Positions 6,498-62,606 of a stretch of DNA of 64,000 nt are shown here, piece by piece. The notes below the pieces were generated by a model. It saw nothing but the letters and a program-made list of their open reading frames with translations. It did no database searches and was not told the origin of the DNA. The stretch lies in sequence record OP114733. The stretch is one strand, 5' to 3'. The position numbers and the translations under genes were made by a program. This DNA is from Escherichia phage vB_EcoM-pEB20. Every line of letters begins with the position of its first letter. Position 1 is the first letter of the stretch.

Positions 6498-6827
6498 ATG
6501 AAAACATATCAGGAGTTTATCACTGAAGTTACATTATCTGCGGAACAGAAAGCTGCTATCGAAGAAGGTAAAAATCCCAAAGTAACATATAAAGTAAATA
6601 GTAAAGGCGTTTTTGATGGCTTGGTTCAAGACCCTGAATTGAAAAAAGCTCTTTCTAAAACTAATGCGTACTTTGCTCCTAAATTTAACACAGCCGGTGT
6701 ACTTATTGGATTGGATGTATTCAACTCTAAAGGTGTTCTATCTAATGCCTTTGGTTATGCCGCTAACAAAATTACCAAAGCCGCATGGGAATCCAATACC
6801 AAACAAGCTCAAAAGCCTAGAGTATAA
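6498..6827 (+). CDS. internal-protein-like with CTS MKTYQEFITE
   Basis: ORF track; CTS-like N-terminus. Confidence 0.65.
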   Translation: MKTYQEFITEVTLSAEQKAAIEEGKNPKVTYKVNSKGVFDGLVQDPELKKALSKTNAYFAPKFNTAGVLIGLDVFNSKGVLSNAFGYAANKITKAAWESNTKQAQKPRV

Positions 6828-6999
6828 TTCTTGCCTAATAAATGGAAACGCAACCTCTCCTCATGAACGTCGAGTCCTCTGAGTGATGTACCTTTTCCAA
6901 CCTGTAATAAGGTCGAGCGCAATGCGGTAATGGGTTTACATAGCGAGTCGAAGGACCTAACATGTGCCACGGAATGGCCCAAACCTTAAGAGAAATAAT

Positions 7000-7539
7000 A
7001 TGAGAACATTTTTAACTGGACCTTATCTATCCCTGATGAATGCTTTTACACACCATTCTGATGCTAGAGTAGAAGAAATTTGTAAGAACGGTTATGTCCC
7101 GCCATTTGAAGACGTACTCAAGCAGTACTGCACACTTCGTTTAGACGGCGGCCGACAATCAGGTAAATCAATTGCTGTGACTAACTTTGCTGCTAATTGG
7201 CTGTATGATGGTGGAACAGTTATTGTTCTTTCTAATACTTCAGCTTATGCTAAAATTTCTGCTGGCAACATTAAAAAAGAATTTTCTCGTTATTCTAGCG
7301 ATGATATTCGATTCCGTTTATTTACTGATTCTGTTCGTAGTTTTATTGGCAATGAAGGTTCTAAATTCCGTGGATTAACGCTTTCTCGTATTCTGTATAT
7401 AATTGACGAGCCTATTAAAGCTCCTGATATGGATAAGATTTACAATGTACATATTAAAACAGTCCAACACTGTTGCAAAAGCAAATATTGCATCGGCGGT
7501 AATGCTCGTCCTCAATTTTTTGTGATTGGAATGCAATGA
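7000..7539 (+). CDS. hypothetical protein with Walker-A-like GGRQSGKS
   Basis: Start at M13 of ORF 6964 after AGAGAAATAAT; P-loop-like motif. Confidence 0.5.
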   Translation: MRTFLTGPYLSLMNAFTHHSDARVEEICKNGYVPPFEDVLKQYCTLRLDGGRQSGKSIAVTNFAANWLYDGGTVIVLSNTSAYAKISAGNIKKEFSRYSSDDIRFRLFTDSVRSFIGNEGSKFRGLTLSRILYIIDEPIKAPDMDKIYNVHIKTVQHCCKSKYCIGGNARPQFFVIGMQ

Positions 7540-9979: not shown

Positions 9980-10323
9980 CCAAAATGTTGGCTTTAATAG
10001 TTGGCTTGGTTTCATTTAACGCTCTTGCTAATACTACATATACTGATGTAACGGAGTATACAAACAGAACGGCGTCTGATTATTGCGGTAAAAGTCAAGA
10101 GTGTAAAGTAGATTTTTCACAAAAATTGTTATATGCGTATAAAGACGGAGAAAAAGATGGGGCGTCTAGTAGGTTCAAGGCGTCTACCTTAATTAAAAGA
10201 TACTATAAAAAATGGCAAATATTAGAATGCTCGGTGGCGGAACCTAAAGATAAGGCAGCATGCAATTCTATGGTGGACCGTCTAGTTGACTCTTATAATA
10301 GAGGACTTGCAGCAAGTGATTAA
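9976..10323 (+). CDS. small secreted protein (signal peptide, 4 Cys)
   Basis: MTKMLALIVGLVSFNALA signal peptide; 115 aa. Confidence 0.55.
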   Translation: MTKMLALIVGLVSFNALANTTYTDVTEYTNRTASDYCGKSQECKVDFSQKLLYAYKDGEKDGASSRFKASTLIKRYYKKWQILECSVAEPKDKAACNSMVDRLVDSYNRGLAASD

Positions 10324-10783
10324 AAACTATATCAAGGGCGATATTGTCGCCCTGTTTTCTAAAGGTAATAATATTGCTCACGGGTGTAATTGTTTTCATA
10401 CAATGGGCGCCGGTGTAGCAGGCCAATTAGCAAAGGCTTATCCAAAAATTTTAGAAGCCGATAAACTTCAAACCGAATTCGGAGACGAGTCTAAACTCGG
10501 GACTTATTCGGTTTATGAAAAATATTTTAAGACCCATAAAGCTTATTGCTTTAATCTTTATACACAGTTTGAGCCGGGACCTAATTTTGAGTACTCTGCT
10601 TTAATGAATTGTATAATAGAATTAAATGAATTCGGAAAGAATAAGATAACAAAGCCTGTAATTTATATGCCAAGAATTGGTGCAGGTATTGGTGGTGGAA
10701 ACTGGGATGTCATCGAAGAGATTTTAGATACGTATTCCACTAAACTAGAAATTGTGATTGTTGATTGGGAACCGTTATTATGA
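10286..10783 (+). CDS. macro-domain protein (ADP-ribose binding/processing, Macro_2-like)
   Basis: AHGCNCFHTMGAGVAGQLAKAYP and PRIGAGIGGGNW motifs; start is non-ATG (TTG 10286 or GTG 10316). Confidence 0.65.
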   Translation: MTLIIEDLQQVIKNYIKGDIVALFSKGNNIAHGCNCFHTMGAGVAGQLAKAYPKILEADKLQTEFGDESKLGTYSVYEKYFKTHKAYCFNLYTQFEPGPNFEYSALMNCIIELNEFGKNKITKPVIYMPRIGAGIGGGNWDVIEEILDTYSTKLEIVIVDWEPLL

Positions 10784-10992
10784 ATATACATTATCCACAT
10801 CCATATGATCCAAAGAATAAGGCAGTAATTATTCGTCAATGGGAACGCATTTGTCGTACTAAATGTCCAATTAATAGTCCACATGATGTAGATAAAGACT
10901 ACATCGGAACATTCGTTGAATATACCTTTATTGATAAGAAAGGCCGTAAACAACATGTAGAAGAATATTGCTTAAAGGTGACATGGCTATGA
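10780..10992 (+). CDS. hypothetical protein
   Basis: M6 of ORF 10765; ATGA overlap. Confidence 0.45.
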   Translation: MNIHYPHPYDPKNKAVIIRQWERICRTKCPINSPHDVDKDYIGTFVEYTFIDKKGRKQHVEEYCLKVTWL

Positions 10993-15326: not shown

Positions 15327-15608
15327 ATGAAAAAATTAGTAATTGGTTTATTCGCAGTAATGATGGCATTCTCTGTTGGTGCTACCACGGGTTCAGCCAG
15401 CGGTAGTGCAGGAACTGGTGGTAACCAGTCTTCTGGGCCTTCCAACGGTTCGGTAAATGCATCACATTCTCAGGGTATTGAGAATATCAAATCAAGCTAT
15501 ATTAATAGCACGGCCGGACAAGCAACTGAAGCATGGTCAAAGGGTCGAGTAGTTACACGCTCCGTATTCTGTGATATGCCTAATTATGTTGCTAAGTGCG
15601 ATAAGTAA
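15327..15608 (+). CDS. secreted Gly/Ser-rich small protein with signal peptide
   Basis: MKKLVIGLFAVMMAFSVGA signal peptide; GSASGSAGTGG low complexity. Confidence 0.55.
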   Translation: MKKLVIGLFAVMMAFSVGATTGSASGSAGTGGNQSSGPSNGSVNASHSQGIENIKSSYINSTAGQATEAWSKGRVVTRSVFCDMPNYVAKCDK

Positions 15609-17191: not shown

Positions 17192-17719
17192 ATGAACGCT
17201 AAAGATATTTTCAACCTGGTAAATTATAACGACGGTAAATTTAAATCTGAAGCACAAAGCAAGTTCTTTAATGACGTTGCTTATGGTAACGAGATTACCG
17301 TGGACGGAGGTCAGATTTTCAAATCTCGCTGGAATTGGATTGTTATCATCGATTCAGTTGGAATTGTGGAAGTCTACAAAAACACTAACAAAAAACGTAC
17401 ATTATTCTGGTCTCGTGAAACTAACGAGCAGTACAAAAAGGATAAAGCATCTCGTTTATCCAAAGTAACCCAGGAAGATATCGAGTTTATCAAGAAAGAT
17501 ATCGAGATGTACGAAAATTTAATCGCTGAAGACCAGGCAGTACTCGATAAGTTTGATGAAATTAAAGCTTCTCGTGAAATCCCTGACTTCATGAAAGAAT
17601 CAGTAAACGAACGATACGCTCTCACTTCAGAACGTATTGCAAACTATACAAAACAGAAAGCAGAACGTATTAGTACTCTTCGGAAATTTGAAGAACGTTT
17701 AAAGACGGTTCACGCATAA
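17192..17719 (+). CDS. hypothetical protein
   Basis: ORF track. Confidence 0.55.
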   Translation: MNAKDIFNLVNYNDGKFKSEAQSKFFNDVAYGNEITVDGGQIFKSRWNWIVIIDSVGIVEVYKNTNKKRTLFWSRETNEQYKKDKASRLSKVTQEDIEFIKKDIEMYENLIAEDQAVLDKFDEIKASREIPDFMKESVNERYALTSERIANYTKQKAERISTLRKFEERLKTVHA

Positions 17720-17781
17720 ACGCTTTACCCAAGGACGGGTTATAATGGTTCTGAGTTCCAATTCAATCTGAGGAAATAGTT

Positions 17782-18777
17782 ATGAGCATTACATCTGATG
17801 CGGTAAAACATGAAATTAACGGTTTATGTGCTTCACAGATTAAAGTGTGGTTTAAAGACCATAATGATCGCAGAGCACTTAATTATGAACAAATTGCTAT
17901 CCAAGTTCATCAATTACTGGTTAGTAAATTTGATTTTCATATGCCGTCTGAAATCTATACTAATCTGCCGCGAGCACTTATTAAAGCGTGTAAAGGTTAT
18001 GGAAAATCAATGGCTGATGGAATCTTCAGCGCGCTGAATAAACTTAACGTTCTGTCGATGATTAACTCTAACAACATCCTTCGTAATCTAGGACGTACTG
18101 ATTTGTTCGGTCGTGAACAGGGTAAAATGCCTTTGAAATGGATTGTTGCTCATCTTAACGAGAACCAAACACGTTTTATGGCCGTAACAGCACGCTTACA
18201 AATGGGCCTAGATCGTCAGATGAACTTTAAAACTCATCCACGTTATTCAGGTTCAACTGACTTTTATAAATGTGAGCTTCAAAAGGTTGCAGGTAAAACT
18301 GTCTTAGTAGTTCGTGTAACGTTTGAAGGACGACGTCAAGGATATTTTGACATAATCGGCTCCGGGCTTAAACATTGTGGATTTATCGACGAAGTTGATA
18401 TCAAGCGAGACGGCATTGGATACCGTATTGGATATGTTTGTACTCTTAAAGAAGAGATTTCAGGACCAGCACCAGGACTAAAAGACGTTAGATATAAAGA
18501 CGAGCTCATTGAAGAAATAAAAGAAGTTGAATATGATATCAACCAAGAAGATGCTCTTAAAGACCTTATTGACGAACTAAACCAAGACTTTATTCCGGTT
18601 CAGAAATTTGAATCAAAACATGCTGAGCAAATCAAATACTTTGAAGCTTTGATTAACGAACTTAATGTAACTATTCAACAGACCGACGATGAAATCTCAC
18701 GATTAGCAGGCTTAAATGGTAAAAATAAAACAGAACGAGCTAATCTTATTCAAGTAGTAAAACTTCTTAAGGAATGA
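17782..18777 (+). CDS. hypothetical protein with C-terminal coiled coil
   Basis: ORF track; own promoter. Confidence 0.55.
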   Translation: MSITSDAVKHEINGLCASQIKVWFKDHNDRRALNYEQIAIQVHQLLVSKFDFHMPSEIYTNLPRALIKACKGYGKSMADGIFSALNKLNVLSMINSNNILRNLGRTDLFGREQGKMPLKWIVAHLNENQTRFMAVTARLQMGLDRQMNFKTHPRYSGSTDFYKCELQKVAGKTVLVVRVTFEGRRQGYFDIIGSGLKHCGFIDEVDIKRDGIGYRIGYVCTLKEEISGPAPGLKDVRYKDELIEEIKEVEYDINQEDALKDLIDELNQDFIPVQKFESKHAEQIKYFEALINELNVTIQQTDDEISRLAGLNGKNKTERANLIQVVKLLKE

Positions 18778-18832
18778 TGTACAACCAAGGAAGGTTGGAG
18801 TATAATAAATTTTTCAACATGAGGAATATAAA

Positions 18833-19768
18833 ATGGCTTCTATTACACGTAGAGAACTTATCAAAGAATTTACCTCGAACGCATATACCCCAGGACCTAA
18901 TCCTATCCGTATGCCTGTAAAGACTCCTGAAGAGATTGAGGAAATCTGTTCATATTATGGGATTAATTCTCGTAAGTTTACTCAATTTGAATGCGTTACT
19001 AACACACCCGTTAAAGAGTTCATTAAAAATGGTGAGTTCAGCCGTTTATTAGCCAAACAGAAACTTCGTAATTTTTGTATCGGCGGTTACGGACAATATT
19101 TCGCTAAGCAGTTCCGGAATAACCTTAACAATCTGATGGCCATTGCTTCTCGTATTCGTCCTCAAGCAATTAACATGAAACATTTGAAATATACTTACGA
19201 TAAGTTGGAAATCATGGTTATCAGTGAGAATGAGTTCACTCTCACGTATAAACCTAAGAATGATAACGTTGCTCGTGTATTCCACCAAGCGTTGGAAGTG
19301 TTAGGTGATAATATTCACCAGATTAAAGCAATTTATTCTCGTGAGCTTAATATTATCAACCCTATCAAGAATAAGGGCCATATCGCTATCCAGGCTCGTG
19401 TATCTATTGGTAAAAAGGTTCCTGCGCCATGGTGGCACAAAGACTCTGAATACTATCAAAATCTTAAAAAGGAAAATGCAACGTTCGAAGCGTCAATTAC
19501 TGCAACACCAATTGGCCATGCTGAAGTTCTAGGTGCATATTCTACTGCTCCATCTATACACATTTCACCGTCGACTAAACTGGAAATCTCTAACGGTCTT
19601 CTTCCTGCCGAAGATTACCATTATAATCAAATCAAGGCCACTGTAGACCAACTATCCGTTGAACTTGACAAAGCACAAGCTAAGCTTCGTGATGCTCAAC
19701 AAGTAGTTACCAAGCTCCAGTTGCAGTACTCTAAACTTTTTAACGCAATGAATGCGTTAAAATCATAA
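18833..19768 (+). CDS. hypothetical protein with C-terminal coiled coil
   Basis: ORF track; own promoter. Confidence 0.55.
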   Translation: MASITRRELIKEFTSNAYTPGPNPIRMPVKTPEEIEEICSYYGINSRKFTQFECVTNTPVKEFIKNGEFSRLLAKQKLRNFCIGGYGQYFAKQFRNNLNNLMAIASRIRPQAINMKHLKYTYDKLEIMVISENEFTLTYKPKNDNVARVFHQALEVLGDNIHQIKAIYSRELNIINPIKNKGHIAIQARVSIGKKVPAPWWHKDSEYYQNLKKENATFEASITATPIGHAEVLGAYSTAPSIHISPSTKLEISNGLLPAEDYHYNQIKATVDQLSVELDKAQAKLRDAQQVVTKLQLQYSKLFNAMNALKS

Positions 19769-19772
19769 ATCA

Positions 19773-19802
19773 GTTTACAACCAAGGATGGTTGGAGTATA
19801 AT
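19773..19802 (+). promoter_or_regulatory. early promoter with spacer hairpin CAACCA-AGGA-TGGTTG
   Basis: GTTTAC 19773-19778; 6-bp stem in spacer; TATAAT 19797-19802. Confidence 0.55.
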
Positions 19803-19830
19803 GAATTTATCTTAACGAGAGGAAAATATT

Positions 19831-20781
19831 ATGACACGTTCACATTACATTGAATACTTTGCAGGTCTTATCGCTAACGTTCATGCCCAACGTGCTTCTG
19901 GTGCACTAGGATTTGATGTTCCACACCGAGATGTAGTAAGTGGTATTCTTCGCGATTTTGGTACATACACAGGCCAAGAAAATCATATCTGTAAAGATAC
20001 TCAGAATGCGTATTCTCATTCATTAGGGACGCTGCTTCAATGGTTCAAACGTTCTCGTTTATTATCTTCTACTGTAGCTCGCGATAACATTAAAAACTTT
20101 ATGAAACCGAGCTTTATTAAATCTGTGACATCTAAAACTGATTTGGTTGAATTCACTATTGTTAATGATGTTAAAAAGACTCATTTGGCTGATTGGTTAT
20201 CTACCATTCCTGAAACTAAATTTGCTGATAAATTTGCTTGTGAATTCAATAAACAAGTGAATATGCTTTTTAAACATTCTCGTAAATTATTCACTGGCGG
20301 TGATGGCCGTACAAATAAAGTTCATGTTAAAGATTGGGTTACTGCAGTATTCAAACCAACTGGTAATGGTAACGCATCATTATCAATTGATATCCAGGTT
20401 CCTTATTACTACTCACGTAATCTCGGTACCATGAAAGCCGAAGAAATTAATAAGCACAACAAAACTATTCGTTCGTTGTCTTATAAACTTATTACATTGT
20501 TAGAGACTATGGATGTTGTTGAAACGTTCGACGAATCCGAAGATAACGGTTCAATGTTATATAGTTCTCGTACCCGAATTAAGTTGAAGAACCCTAACGA
20601 GTATAAACTTAAGACTATTAAAGAACCTAAAGTAGAAAAGGTTGATATCATGGCTGAAGAACGTGAATATCTCAAATCTCGTCTGAAAGAAGTCGAAGCC
20701 CAGATTGCAGAACAAACTAAATCGTTAAAAGCTCTGAATGCGAAAGCGGATGGTTTACGAAATGCCATTGAGGTGTTATAA
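19831..20781 (+). CDS. hypothetical protein with C-terminal coiled coil
   Basis: ORF track. Confidence 0.55.
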   Translation: MTRSHYIEYFAGLIANVHAQRASGALGFDVPHRDVVSGILRDFGTYTGQENHICKDTQNAYSHSLGTLLQWFKRSRLLSSTVARDNIKNFMKPSFIKSVTSKTDLVEFTIVNDVKKTHLADWLSTIPETKFADKFACEFNKQVNMLFKHSRKLFTGGDGRTNKVHVKDWVTAVFKPTGNGNASLSIDIQVPYYYSRNLGTMKAEEINKHNKTIRSLSYKLITLLETMDVVETFDESEDNGSMLYSSRTRIKLKNPNEYKLKTIKEPKVEKVDIMAEEREYLKSRLKEVEAQIAEQTKSLKALNAKADGLRNAIEVL

Positions 20782-21086
20782 TGAGCCTACGTCTTTTAGA
20801 GGATATTGATATGAGCACTAATCATGACTTGGTTAAGTTTATTGACGATAGTTCAAAGATTGAATTTGTTCAGCGAGATAAAATCCACGGTGAAGAAGAG
20901 TTCGTTCCTCCGGCATGGAACGAAATAATGAAAATGGTTGAACGACGTGAAAATGCTGCCAAATCGGCAGCAAAACATCCATGCCCGGAATGTGGAACTA
21001 TCCAAGTCCAACTGGTTAACTGGACCACTGATAACTTGAAATTGAAATGCCGTAAATGCTTCCACAAATTTGAGAGAACATTATAA
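20781..21086 (+). CDS. zinc-ribbon protein
   Basis: CPECG...CRKC pair. Confidence 0.5.
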   Translation: MSLRLLEDIDMSTNHDLVKFIDDSSKIEFVQRDKIHGEEEFVPPAWNEIMKMVERRENAAKSAAKHPCPECGTIQVQLVNWTTDNLKLKCRKCFHKFERTL

Positions 21087-21499
21087 TGAGATATAGCCTT
21101 CGTTGTTTTATCGCAGCTTTAGTTTTTGCTATTATTCCATTCATTTGGAACAGCCAGAATACTTACATGGAAACTAAAGTAATTCCTGTGGAGGTAGTGG
21201 AATTAATCTCAGGCCAATCTACAGGAAAATATTCTAAATTAGAATTTATTGCAGTCTATAAAGATGAGCAAGGACGAGTTTTTGACAGGCGTGTATCACC
21301 GTCGTTTTATACGCTTCTGAATAAAGGTGATACGATAGCTATAGAAATTCGTGAGATGGATATCAAACAAACTACTAAAGATAACTTGATTTGGTTCTTT
21401 GGTACGGTGTTGTTGGTTTCTATCTGTATCACAGGTTTTATTACATGTATTGTATTTGGCATTGCATATTTAATCGATGAAAGGAAAAATAATGTTTAA
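21086..21499 (+). CDS. membrane protein (N- and C-terminal TM helices)
   Basis: ORF track. Confidence 0.5.
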   Translation: MRYSLRCFIAALVFAIIPFIWNSQNTYMETKVIPVEVVELISGQSTGKYSKLEFIAVYKDEQGRVFDRRVSPSFYTLLNKGDTIAIEIREMDIKQTTKDNLIWFFGTVLLVSICITGFITCIVFGIAYLIDERKNNV

Positions 21500-61096: not shown

Positions 61097-61126
61097 GTTT
61101 ACAACCAAGGATGGTTGGAGTATAAT
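61097..61126 (+). promoter_or_regulatory. early promoter with spacer hairpin CAACCA-AGGA-TGGTTG
   Basis: GTTTAC 61097-61102; stem 61102-61107/61112-61117; TATAAT 61121-61126. Confidence 0.55.
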
Positions 61127-61157
61127 TTTTCTATCTTAACCAAACAGGAAAAACATT

Positions 61158-61652
61158 ATGAATATCAATACCATGGCCACTTACATCCTGAAAGACGAAA
61201 AACAAATCAACTGGTACAGTGCTTCAGTGCGAGCTTATGAAAAGTTTTGTGAAATTTTAGGTGCCACTCAAGGTAATAGTTTCACTATTGTTAACTTCAT
61301 CAAACAAGCTGAAGGCCCTTGGTTATTCTTAGAAATTAAAAATTCATACGGTACAATTTCTACTACCGCCCTTCCAAGCACCGACTTTGAACTGTTGATT
61401 GAAGAAGTAGAACCCGTTAAAGACCTCTGTATTGATATGGATATCGCTTGTATGTACGGTACTCTGATTAAGCCTATTGAGCCTACTGATTTGTTGTGTA
61501 AAGCTGTTTCAATTCGACGTCCGTTCGCAGGTCCAGTGAGTGGATGGGTAACTGATCAGTGGATTGAAGATGGTGTTGAACTTCTGAACGTTGTTCACGC
61601 AGGTGATTTTAGTGTAGTTCCACGTAGTGCTGTAGTTAATATCCTTAATTAA
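61158..61652 (+). CDS. paralog family B member 1 (C-terminal DQW[IV]EDG motif)
   Basis: C-terminus ...GWVTDQWIEDGVELLNVVHAGDFSVV. Confidence 0.55.
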   Translation: MNINTMATYILKDEKQINWYSASVRAYEKFCEILGATQGNSFTIVNFIKQAEGPWLFLEIKNSYGTISTTALPSTDFELLIEEVEPVKDLCIDMDIACMYGTLIKPIEPTDLLCKAVSIRRPFAGPVSGWVTDQWIEDGVELLNVVHAGDFSVVPRSAVVNILN

Positions 61653-61712
61653 TGTTGTACATCCAAGGATGGATGGAGTATAATGAATTCAACTTAAACA
61701 AAGAGAGAAATT

Positions 61713-62177
61713 ATGATTACTATTGGTGAAATTAAACGTGTATCGACAGTGTCTCGTTCTAAAGCTGCAGGAAAGCTGGTTGAAGTAGTAGGACTTCGTA
61801 CTAATGGCATGGGCCGTATTAAAGAAGTTAAAGTTCGAATCATTCCTAGTTCTGGAAAAACTGAAACTCAGTTCGCCTATGTAAGTCCTAAATTCTTGGA
61901 AACTCCTGTGAGCGCTCATTTTGCTTCAAGCGATATCGTTGAGCCTACTACACAGTTCAAATGGGCCTTGTGTAAAGGTGTTGAATTCCAGACTGATAAA
62001 GAATTTGACTTCATCGATGAATACGGTTATCCAAGCAAAACTGATACTATGTGTGGCTTCATTAGTGACCAATGGGTAGAAGATGGTAAAAAGCTATACA
62101 ATATTGTATTCTTAGGTGACTTCCGAGTTGTTGAAGAATCTGAAATCACTCGCTATGTGTCTCCTCGTAAAGCTTAA
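61713..62177 (+). CDS. paralog family B member 2
   Basis: ...GFISDQWVEDGKKLYNIVFLGDFRVV; homologous over full length to next ORF. Confidence 0.6.
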   Translation: MITIGEIKRVSTVSRSKAAGKLVEVVGLRTNGMGRIKEVKVRIIPSSGKTETQFAYVSPKFLETPVSAHFASSDIVEPTTQFKWALCKGVEFQTDKEFDFIDEYGYPSKTDTMCGFISDQWVEDGKKLYNIVFLGDFRVVEESEITRYVSPRKA

Positions 62178-62186
62178 GGAATTATT

Positions 62187-62606
62187 ATGAATATTGCAAA
62201 TCTCTCTATTGGTGATTATGTACATGTATCGGATGCTTCTCGCTCTAAAGTTGCTGGGAAGTTGGTTGAAGTTCTTTCTGTGAGTGATCCGGTTTTTGGA
62301 CGTAACGAAGTTAAAGTTCGTGACGCCGATGGTAACATTGGTTACGTTAAAAGCCAGTTCATTGAGCCAGAAGAACGTACGTTCAAATGGAAACTGTGCA
62401 GGTCTGTTTTAGTTGTAAAAGACCATGAATTTACTATTGCTGCTGCAACTGACGGGTCTCCATGGACAACGAATCAAGTTGCTGGTTTTATTTCGGACCA
62501 ATGGGTAGAAGATGGTGTTAAGCTTTATAACATCGTTTTCGCTGGACAGTTCATGGTAGTTCCTGAGTTCCAAATCAAAAAATATTGTCCAGCATCTTTT
62601 GCATAA
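62187..62606 (+). CDS. paralog family B member 3
   Basis: ...GFISDQWVEDGVKLYNIVFAGQFMVV. Confidence 0.6.
   Translation: MNIANLSIGDYVHVSDASRSKVAGKLVEVLSVSDPVFGRNEVKVRDADGNIGYVKSQFIEPEERTFKWKLCRSVLVVKDHEFTIAAATDGSPWTTNQVAGFISDQWVEDGVKLYNIVFAGQFMVVPEFQIKKYCPASFA

Follow-up and report, generated by a model that had tools for sequence, protein, structure and literature searches.

What connects three adjacent, similarly sized genes in the early region of a T4-like phage, and what might they do during infection? The genes, here open reading frames (ORFs) 1 to 3, lie consecutively on the plus strand of a 64,000-nucleotide stretch of Escherichia phage vB_EcoM-pEB20 (record OP114733), the whole of which we call the window. 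A sequence-only reading had described their products as three proteins of one architecture, non-homologous by eye, each expressed from its own strong promoter, and had proposed a modular set of independently transcribed early effectors. The three reading frames are real, encoding 331, 311 and 316 amino acids (aa), each behind a GAGGA/GGAA ribosome-binding site. By sequence comparison they are the phage's counterparts of T4 nrdC.6, nrdC.5 and nrdC.3, and they appear to be remote paralogues that would form one superfamily with NrdC.4, descended from one ancestral gene. By analogy with T4, we put the probability at roughly 60% that they constitute a diversifying tandem array of highly diverged paralogues encoding early anti-defence proteins.

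17782..18777, plus strand: ORF1, 331 aa, NrdC.6 family (PHROG 2257; precomputed Pfam label PF26899)
18833..19768, plus strand: ORF2, 311 aa, full-length Pfam DUF7235 (5.4e-115), T4 NrdC.5 family
19831..20781, plus strand: ORF3, 316 aa, T4 NrdC.3 orthologue (PHROG 1435; precomputed Pfam label PF26897)

Each gene could be assigned to a T4 family individually. BLASTP against T4 aligned ORF1 with NrdC.6 at 29% identity over 269 columns (E 2e-18; overall range 29-33%), and a tblastn match in Tequatrovirus covered residues 27-330 (E about 1e-26), so that similarity to the family is significant over most of the protein. ORF1 also fell into PHROG 2257 (1.6e-126), which has no assigned function, and its close homologues carry the label PF26899. 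ORF2 is only 23% identical to T4 NrdC.5 (E 1e-8), and its residues 15-310 align to positions 1-307 of the DUF7235 profile with 384.5 bits against a cut-off of 30; T4 NrdC.5 itself scores 420.6 bits (5e-126) and the homologue in phage dhaeg 397.1 bits, both over their full length. ORF2 and T4 NrdC.5 thus share a full-length DUF7235, a similar size, a C-terminal heptad helix and a place in the same early nrdC block directly after an NrdC.6-family gene. They differ in their low identity, in an N-terminal extension of roughly 30 residues on ORF2 seen in the multiple alignment, and in transcription: ORF2 has an early promoter of its own, whereas T4 nrdC.5 directly follows nrdC.6 without one. ORF3 is 57% identical to T4 NrdC.3 over 316 aligned columns (E 2e-118); PHROG 1435 has no assigned function, and PF26897 is the precomputed label of its close homologues. 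Its stop codon overlaps the nrdC.2-like start by 1 nt, placing it directly upstream of nrdC.2 as in T4. T4 NrdC.3, NrdC.4 and NrdC.6 resemble ORF1 and ORF3 in size and in their layout of N-domain, linker and C-terminal helix; NrdC.4 has no counterpart in this phage.

The relationship among the three families became visible at the level of profiles. The earlier impression of non-homology holds for pairwise BLASTP, which found no match among ORF1, ORF2 and ORF3 (best E 2.4), and hhalign on shallow family alignments (effective sequence number, Neff, 1.1-1.8) likewise gave no signal among them. This second null reflects profile depth, since signal was recovered on adding members from T4, Dhakavirus and the single-copy members of other genera. 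The loci compared came from T4, four Mosigvirus-type phages, five further Tequatrovirus-type phages, one Dhakavirus and five other genera anchored on NrdC.10 (Moonvirus CF1, Klebsiella phage Roth77, Karamvirus EnA02, Acinetobacter phage Konradin and Gelderlandvirus NP4); two more NrdC.10-anchored loci, from Aeromonas and Cronobacter phages, held no family member in the stretch fetched. Clustering of the collected proteins yielded four families, C6, C5, C4 and C3. C3 and C4 matched with an hhalign probability of 97-98% and with collinear BLAST matches down to 2e-8, and C4 matched C5 at 73% (E 3e-5) with the C-terminal helix removed. C6 matched a combined profile of C3, C4, C5 and the five single-copy members at 96-98% over the full length (E 2e-9 to 2e-11), and at 73% when the last 55 aa were cut from all. 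Leaving families out preserved the signal: C5 scored 96-99% against the rest, and C3 scored 88-98% against C5, C6 and the others without C4. Taken together, the superfamily comparisons reached 73-96% on N-terminal regions only and 95-99% at full length, compared with at most 0.4% for the negative controls (a neighbouring 262-aa family, NrdC.10 and NrdC.11), and motifs common to C3, C4 and C5 can be followed collinearly by eye. The claim of non-homology therefore falls to profile-profile comparison. The claim of a common architecture, in layout and size, stands, and this architecture most plausibly reflects remote paralogy, which we infer from limited alignments, as opposed to convergence of unrelated proteins.

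Each protein consists of a 220-250-aa alpha/beta N-terminal region, a hypervariable linker and a retained C-terminal heptad helix of 40-60 aa.

18598..18774, plus strand: ORF1 C-terminal helical module, aa 273-331 (heptad helix, GLNGKNK break, second helix)
19619..19765, plus strand: ORF2 C-terminal heptad helix, aa 263-311
20653..20778, plus strand: ORF3 C-terminal heptad helix, aa 275-316 (AlphaFold2: single helix 275-315)

The C-terminal coiled coils proposed from the sequence were borne out by prediction. Among 78 ORFs, the heptad helices of ORF1, ORF2 and ORF3 ranked 6th, 3rd and 2nd, with z scores of 3.4-5.4, none of 300 shuffles scoring as high, and at least four heptads within predicted helices. 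These ends are also the best-kept parts. Identity to T4-type orthologues is 23-56% in the N-domains, 8-36% in the linkers and 41-74% in the C-terminal helices; the ORF1 module is 58% identical to Tequatrovirus NrdC.6 against 30% for its N-domain, and the ORF3 helix is 74% identical to T4 NrdC.3 against 56%. By comparison, six of eight neighbouring genes are 48-92% identical to their T4-type orthologues, NrdC.9 (33%) and NrdC.7 (36%) being the others. Divergence is thus slowest in the C-terminal helix, rapid in the globular N-domain and greatest in the linker.

Structure prediction was consistent with a common layout. Two independent AlphaFold2 runs, for ORF3 with 30 sequences (pLDDT 48.8) and for ORF1 with 5 (pLDDT 47.2), returned low-confidence models with a near-superimposable secondary-structure order: about seven helices reach residue 150 and are followed by a beta hairpin at ~162-181, one helix and another hairpin, before a disordered linker leads to the C-terminal helices. 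Both models matched the same BFVD entry, E5EYP0 (2e-4 and 5e-5), a suggestive match only, with TM-scores of 0.19-0.26, and a Foldseek search of the models against the PDB gave nothing below E 0.04. Scattered matches of the models to protein-kinase N-lobes were dismissed as noise, as were the matches from profile searches of PDB sequences, which gave only coiled-coil hits such as prefoldin and troponin T.

Copy number varies among close relatives. T-even coliphages carry one to four copies per genome: T4 and most Tequatroviruses have four, this phage and dhaeg three (different subsets), ESCO47 two with ORF2 missing, and ACG-C40 one plus a 71-aa NrdC.5/NrdC.3 fusion remnant, NrdC.5 to NrdC.3 having been lost. 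Moonvirus, Karamvirus, Gelderlandvirus, the Klebsiella phage and the Acinetobacter phage each hold a single copy in the corresponding place, a protein of 324-352 aa whose C-terminus is a heptad helix. The idea of a modular set is upheld in this sense, as separate cassettes whose number differs from phage to phage. The relatives never carry the genes as one full-length fusion, and outside the T-even coliphages a single gene of the same size is found. ORF1-ORF3 are kept in hundreds of T-even-type phages; family members occur in 741 (ORF1), 132 (ORF2) and 653 (ORF3) phage records, all from T-even-type phages of enterobacteria. An IMG/VR search with ORF3 returned 7 loci, all T-even-like. The ORF1 family is sparse in broader collections: a profile search of 1.84 billion proteins recovered six representatives, all NrdC.6-type or fragments, and this representative search held no bridge from the NrdC.6 family to the others. 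A conserved, putatively oligomerising end, a fast-evolving head and frequent gain and loss make up the pattern expected of proteins that would engage variable host factors.

The case for an anti-defence role is drawn from T4. T4 nrdC.5 lets a deletion mutant plate again on cells with the ECOR17 dsr1 gene, and its product neutralises Dsr1, a Sir2-type defence protein (Srikant et al. 2022, eLife, PMC9391042). Dsr1 has a sensor of the Avs7 type, with which it recognises the major capsid protein of phages (PMC13581612). The same block also encodes a Septu inhibitor, NrdC.1 (bioRxiv 10.1101/2025.11.20.689424), and an OLD inhibitor, Gp49.2 (PMC13096335), these anti-Septu and anti-OLD genes belonging to T4/T6. 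All four T4 paralogues (nrdC.3,.4,.5 and.6) are non-essential on the laboratory host, with transposon insertions at 96-100% of scored sites. The action of T4 nrdC.5 on Dsr1, the anti-Septu and anti-OLD genes of T4/T6 close by and the dispensability of the four paralogues lead us to favour anti-defence for the array as a whole, a function we infer by analogy. What the sequence-only reading called early effectors is thus partly supported: the genes sit in an early block behind T4-type early promoters, and T4 NrdC.5 is an experimentally shown effector, but it is one family member only.

We propose the following mechanism. The proteins would be made early in infection, and the C-terminal helix would hold them as a dimer or higher oligomer, so placing a fast-evolving N-domain to bind and block a host immune protein. 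Duplication and divergence would give each paralogue a different target or target allele, and recombination at the repeated promoter/hairpin cassettes described below would add and remove copies. For the ORF2 family the target would be the Dsr1 sensor, by analogy with the action of the phage protein DSAD1 on the defence protein DSR2; DSAD1 reportedly acts by binding the DSR2 sensor region. ORF1 and ORF3 would act on other targets. DSAD1, from an SPbeta-like phage (PMC10973363, PMC10981675, PMC11087589), resembles NrdC.5 in countering a defence-associated sirtuin, a functional analogy only; its host clade is different and its target is DSR2, not Dsr1. No similarity to DSAD1 appeared in any search made, among which there was no direct comparison with DSAD1. 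A bolder extension, which we regard as rather unlikely, would make NrdC.3, NrdC.4, NrdC.5 and NrdC.6 one growing family of oligomers that block sensors, each directed against a different immune protein. The targets might be different members of a large group of defence proteins with a common capsid-sensing sensor of the Avs7/Dsr1 type (PMC13581612). What T4 NrdC.5 does to Dsr1 would then be one case of an evolvable counter-defence scaffold with a constant coiled-coil stalk and a variable head, and the covarying hairpin promoters would be recombination handles that shuffle copies.

Several points weigh against the anti-defence array. Experimental function within the superfamily is confined to T4 NrdC.5, and because ORF2 is so distant from that protein (23% identity), its target may differ. 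The weakest homology link is C6: against C3, C4 and C5 alone it reached 21-73%, becoming strong only with single-copy proteins in the profile, several of which are themselves joined by weak pairwise links. Coiled-coil formation and oligomeric state are deduced from a heptad score of our own making and from helices of low confidence, and the AlphaFold2 models of ORF1 and ORF3 are too poor for fold-level homology or a fold-based functional hint. PDB and NCBIfam searches gave no match for any of the three proteins, and Pfam gave one for ORF2 only (DUF7235). No catalysis-like residue pattern is conserved, an absence that is not proof of a binder role.

Among the alternatives, the most serious is that these are paralogous early host-takeover proteins acting on housekeeping machinery (transcription, the nucleoid, proteolysis or metabolism) and not on immunity, with the anti-Dsr1 effect of NrdC.5 arising indirectly, for example through altered NAD metabolism or the timing of capsid-protein exposure. 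We consider it unlikely, yet the strongest contender. The genes are early-expressed and non-essential, like many T4 takeover genes; no mechanism has been established for NrdC.5 against Dsr1; and the same block contains pin, annotated as an inhibitor of the host Lon protease. Strain-specific immune targets nevertheless explain better than conserved housekeeping targets why the proteins diverge rapidly, turn over in copy number and are restricted to a very narrow clade of hosts, and the neighbouring accessory genes of known role are mostly direct defence inhibitors.

The proteins might instead serve the phage itself, for instance by scaffolding or regulating, as oligomers, early replication or transcription, with the coiled coil tethering them to a phage complex. 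A conserved phage partner could explain why the C-terminal helix is best conserved. One copy is also retained at the same locus in distant Straboviridae genera. The tolerance of all four T4 copies to transposon insertion on the laboratory host, the loss of copies from natural phages and N-domains that diverge far faster than phage core proteins make this improbable to our minds. We attach equally little weight to the view of the sequence-only reading, that three unrelated proteins came by convergence to be alike in size and in their C-terminal coiled coil, and that each acts early as an independent effector from its own strong promoter. It would account for the negative pairwise BLASTP and shallow hhalign results and for the placement of ORF1, ORF2 and ORF3 in three separate families by Pfam and PHROGs. 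Against it stand the profile-profile evidence for homology (diverse members, leave-family-out, helix-trimmed and negative-control tests), the matching secondary-structure orders of the low-confidence AlphaFold2 models and the lack of a properly spaced promoter at ORF1. For the anti-defence array, the paralogy matters because very few proteins besides T4 NrdC.5 are known to counter a defence-associated sirtuin. If the paralogy is true, NrdC.3, NrdC.4 and NrdC.6 become candidate anti-defence factors of common build, turning three uncharacterised T4 genes into testable candidates in which the constant part (the C-terminal helix) and the fast-evolving parts (N-domain and linker) are now identified. 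The genes themselves are already known as T4-family hypothetical proteins. What may be new is their union into one paralogous NrdC.3/.4/.5/.6 superfamily, in which a linker joins a variable head to a constant helix, together with the covarying AAGGAN hairpin that their promoters contain; we found no paper mentioning these Pfam family identifiers, and papers naming the genes appear silent on paralogy.

We then asked how far each gene is a transcription unit of its own. The upstream elements recall PeSLs, composite early-promoter/stem-loop cassettes repeated in T4-type hyperplastic regions and implicated in gene shuffling (PMC4122927).

17136..17164, plus strand: T4-type early promoter of the nrdC.8-like gene, GTTTAC-17-TATTAT
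17725..17746, plus strand: compressed PeSL-like element upstream of ORF1, TTTACC, hairpin ACCC-AAGGAC-GGGT (17727-17740), TATAAT
18778..18806, plus strand: ORF2 early promoter, TGTACA-17-TATAAT, with spacer hairpin CAACC-AAGGAA-GGTTG (18782-18797) followed by GGAG
19773..19802, plus strand: ORF3 early promoter, GTTTAC-18-TATAAT, 0 mismatches to the pattern, with spacer hairpin CAACC-AAGGAT-GGTTG (19778-19793)

ORF2 and ORF3 do have near-consensus T4-type early promoters, that of ORF3 being the best sigma-70 match in a 10-kb scan (11 of 12 positions). ORF1 does not share this property. Its TTTACC and TATAAT boxes are separated by a spacer of only 11 nt, too short for a canonical sigma-70 promoter; neither scan called a promoter there, and the upstream sequence offers no alternative -35 box giving a 16-18-nt spacer. 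The nearest properly spaced promoter upstream is that of the nrdC.8-like gene. Nor does the CAACCAAGG-type promoter said to precede each gene do so: exact CAACCAAGG occurs three times in the 64 kb (18782, 19778 and 61102) and not at ORF1, and this 9-mer is the 5' arm and loop of the small hairpin inside the promoter spacer (CAACC-AAGGAT-GGTTG). Own early promoters are in any case common in the region, with about 15 GTTTAC-N17-19-TATAAT-like sites on the plus strand just 5' of a visible ribosome-binding site and start codon, so that the feature is not special to these genes. A terminator scan found no terminator-like site on the plus strand between 17.7 and 20.8 kb. Given this and the absence of a properly spaced promoter, ORF1 is probably transcribed by read-through from nrdC.8, and ORF2 and ORF3 likely receive upstream read-through as well. 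Independent transcription is therefore at best partial, applying to the promoters of ORF2 and ORF3 but not to ORF1.

A hairpin is present in all three upstream elements, its AAGGAN loop conserved and its stems covarying. The window contains six hairpins with this loop and four or more stem pairs, where 0.6 would be expected; five of the six are intergenic (the three at ORF1-ORF3, plus 61107 and 61665). The loop is constant, and the stems vary among CAACC/GGTTG, CATCC/GGATG, CCAC/GTGG, AGCC/GGCT, ACCC/GGGT and TTATACC/GGTATAA. Across 10 distinct elements from this phage, T4, dhaeg, Mizar and ESCO47, stem pairing held in 86% of cells compared with 61.5% in shuffles, and four of five pairs had changed on both sides. 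The covariation score was 0.50 against 0.13 in shuffles (none of 500 reached 0.50) and at most 0.17 in slid controls. Predicted free energies are modest, from -4.9 to -9.8 kcal/mol. A compressed element of the ORF1 type also follows nrdC.8 in T4 and dhaeg, a conservation indicating that it is maintained, though not as a canonical promoter.

The elements share with the published PeSLs (Arbiol 2010, PMC2839356; Comeau 2014, PMC4122927) a TTTACW-N17-TAYWAT-type early promoter joined to a short stem-loop, repetition in a hyperplastic region, flanking genes whose presence differs from one close relative to the next, and degraded copies. Degraded PeSLs with wrongly spaced boxes are described for the PST/T4 pair at about 43-51 kb (PMC4122927). 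The stem-loop here differs from the PST/T4 consensus as given in the text of those papers (AGNA-loop-TCNT) in lying inside the promoter spacer and in combining a constant AAGGAN loop with variable stems. We found a correctly spaced sigma-70-like promoter (ORF2 and ORF3), a conserved stem-loop and an association with gene gain and loss; at the sequence level no terminator stem-loop was seen, the hairpins having no T-run after them and the plus-strand terminator scan yielding no site. Without a T-run, terminator function is doubtful. Another promoter/stem-loop class in the window comprises early promoters starting at 1034, 2329, 13015 and 51209, whose TATAGT -10 box lies in a palindrome, AGGACTAT..TATAGTAGTCCTAT; this class resembles the AGNA-loop-TCNT stem-loops published for PST/T4 PeSLs.

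Other features of these elements deserve mention. GGAG stands right after the hairpin and before the -10 box at 18797-18800 and 19793-19796, and also in T4 upstream of nrdC.3. We take GGAG to be the target of the T4 RegB endoribonuclease, in which case read-through transcripts might be processed at elements of the ORF2/ORF3 type. The ORF3 promoter/hairpin 30-mer has an identical copy at 61097-61126, which precedes the first ORF (61158-61652) of a second tandem paralogue array (61097-62606) downstream of a dexA-like gene. The second ORF of that array (61713-62177) follows a variant hairpin with the compensatory stem change CATCC/GGATG (61660-61675); it is 44% identical to the third (62187-62606; 7e-31), and the first shares with them a C-terminal DQW[VI]EDG...VV motif (6e-11, 9e-10). 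A further GTTTAC-18-TATAAT match with 0 mismatches occupies 20753-20782, in the final 30 nt of ORF3. Both the ORF3 stop and the nrdC.2-like start codon coincide in part with its -10 box (ttATAATGagc), so a transcript from it would lack that start; the match may be due to chance or may serve a downstream start.

Over positions 17700-20800 the sequence shares 98% identity with Escherichia phage mogra, and many other phages match it at 95-97%; the taxonomy of related matches such as ESCO47 places this phage, by sequence, among the T4-like Mosigvirus (Straboviridae, Tevenvirinae). The plus-strand early block follows the T4 gene order from nrdC.11 to nrdD: nucleotidyltransferase, the AAA protein NrdC.10, NrdC.9, NrdC.8, ORF1-ORF3, NrdC.2, an NrdC.7-like membrane protein, NrdC, gp49 and NrdD. 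The NrdC.7-like gene (21086-21499; 41% identity to T4 NrdC.7) lies between the nrdC.2-like gene and nrdC, unlike T4 nrdC.7, which sits between nrdC.8 and nrdC.6; this local rearrangement places ORF1 directly after nrdC.8.

'Thioredoxin' is the name that many GenBank records give to ORF1-ORF3 and to most of the other nrdC.x genes. No search made for ORF1-ORF3, Pfam and NCBIfam included, supports the label, which appears to be carried over from the adjoining nrdC gene, and the family assignments given here can replace it. In RefSeq T4 (NC_000866), nrdC.6 is 275 aa long (T4 locus 10067-10894), whereas other Tequatroviruses, and T4 itself as re-annotated in the version used by the HIDEN-SEQ study (124741-125631), have 295-296 aa; the RefSeq start codon is probably placed too far downstream. 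In ACG-C40, the 71-aa ORF (locus 6805-7213) is annotated as NrdC.5-like, and its downstream part is 78% identical to ORF3 residues 245-316. It is a deletion scar in which the nrdC.5 start runs into the nrdC.3 end, with nrdC.4 lost. In a Tequatrovirus-like IMG/VR contig (6910-7942), the NrdC.4 gene is broken into two ORFs (193 and 158 aa), which points to either a sequencing error or a frameshift pseudogene. The 262-aa gene that lies upstream of the single-copy protein in the other genera was considered as a family member and rejected, scoring at most 0.4% against the superfamily profile and at most 2.1% against individual families, and it served as one of the negative controls. Finally, between the nrdC.11-like and nrdC.10-like genes, where T4 has no gene, lies a 93-aa ORF (15327-15608) with a signal-peptide-like N-terminus and a Gly/Ser-rich region.

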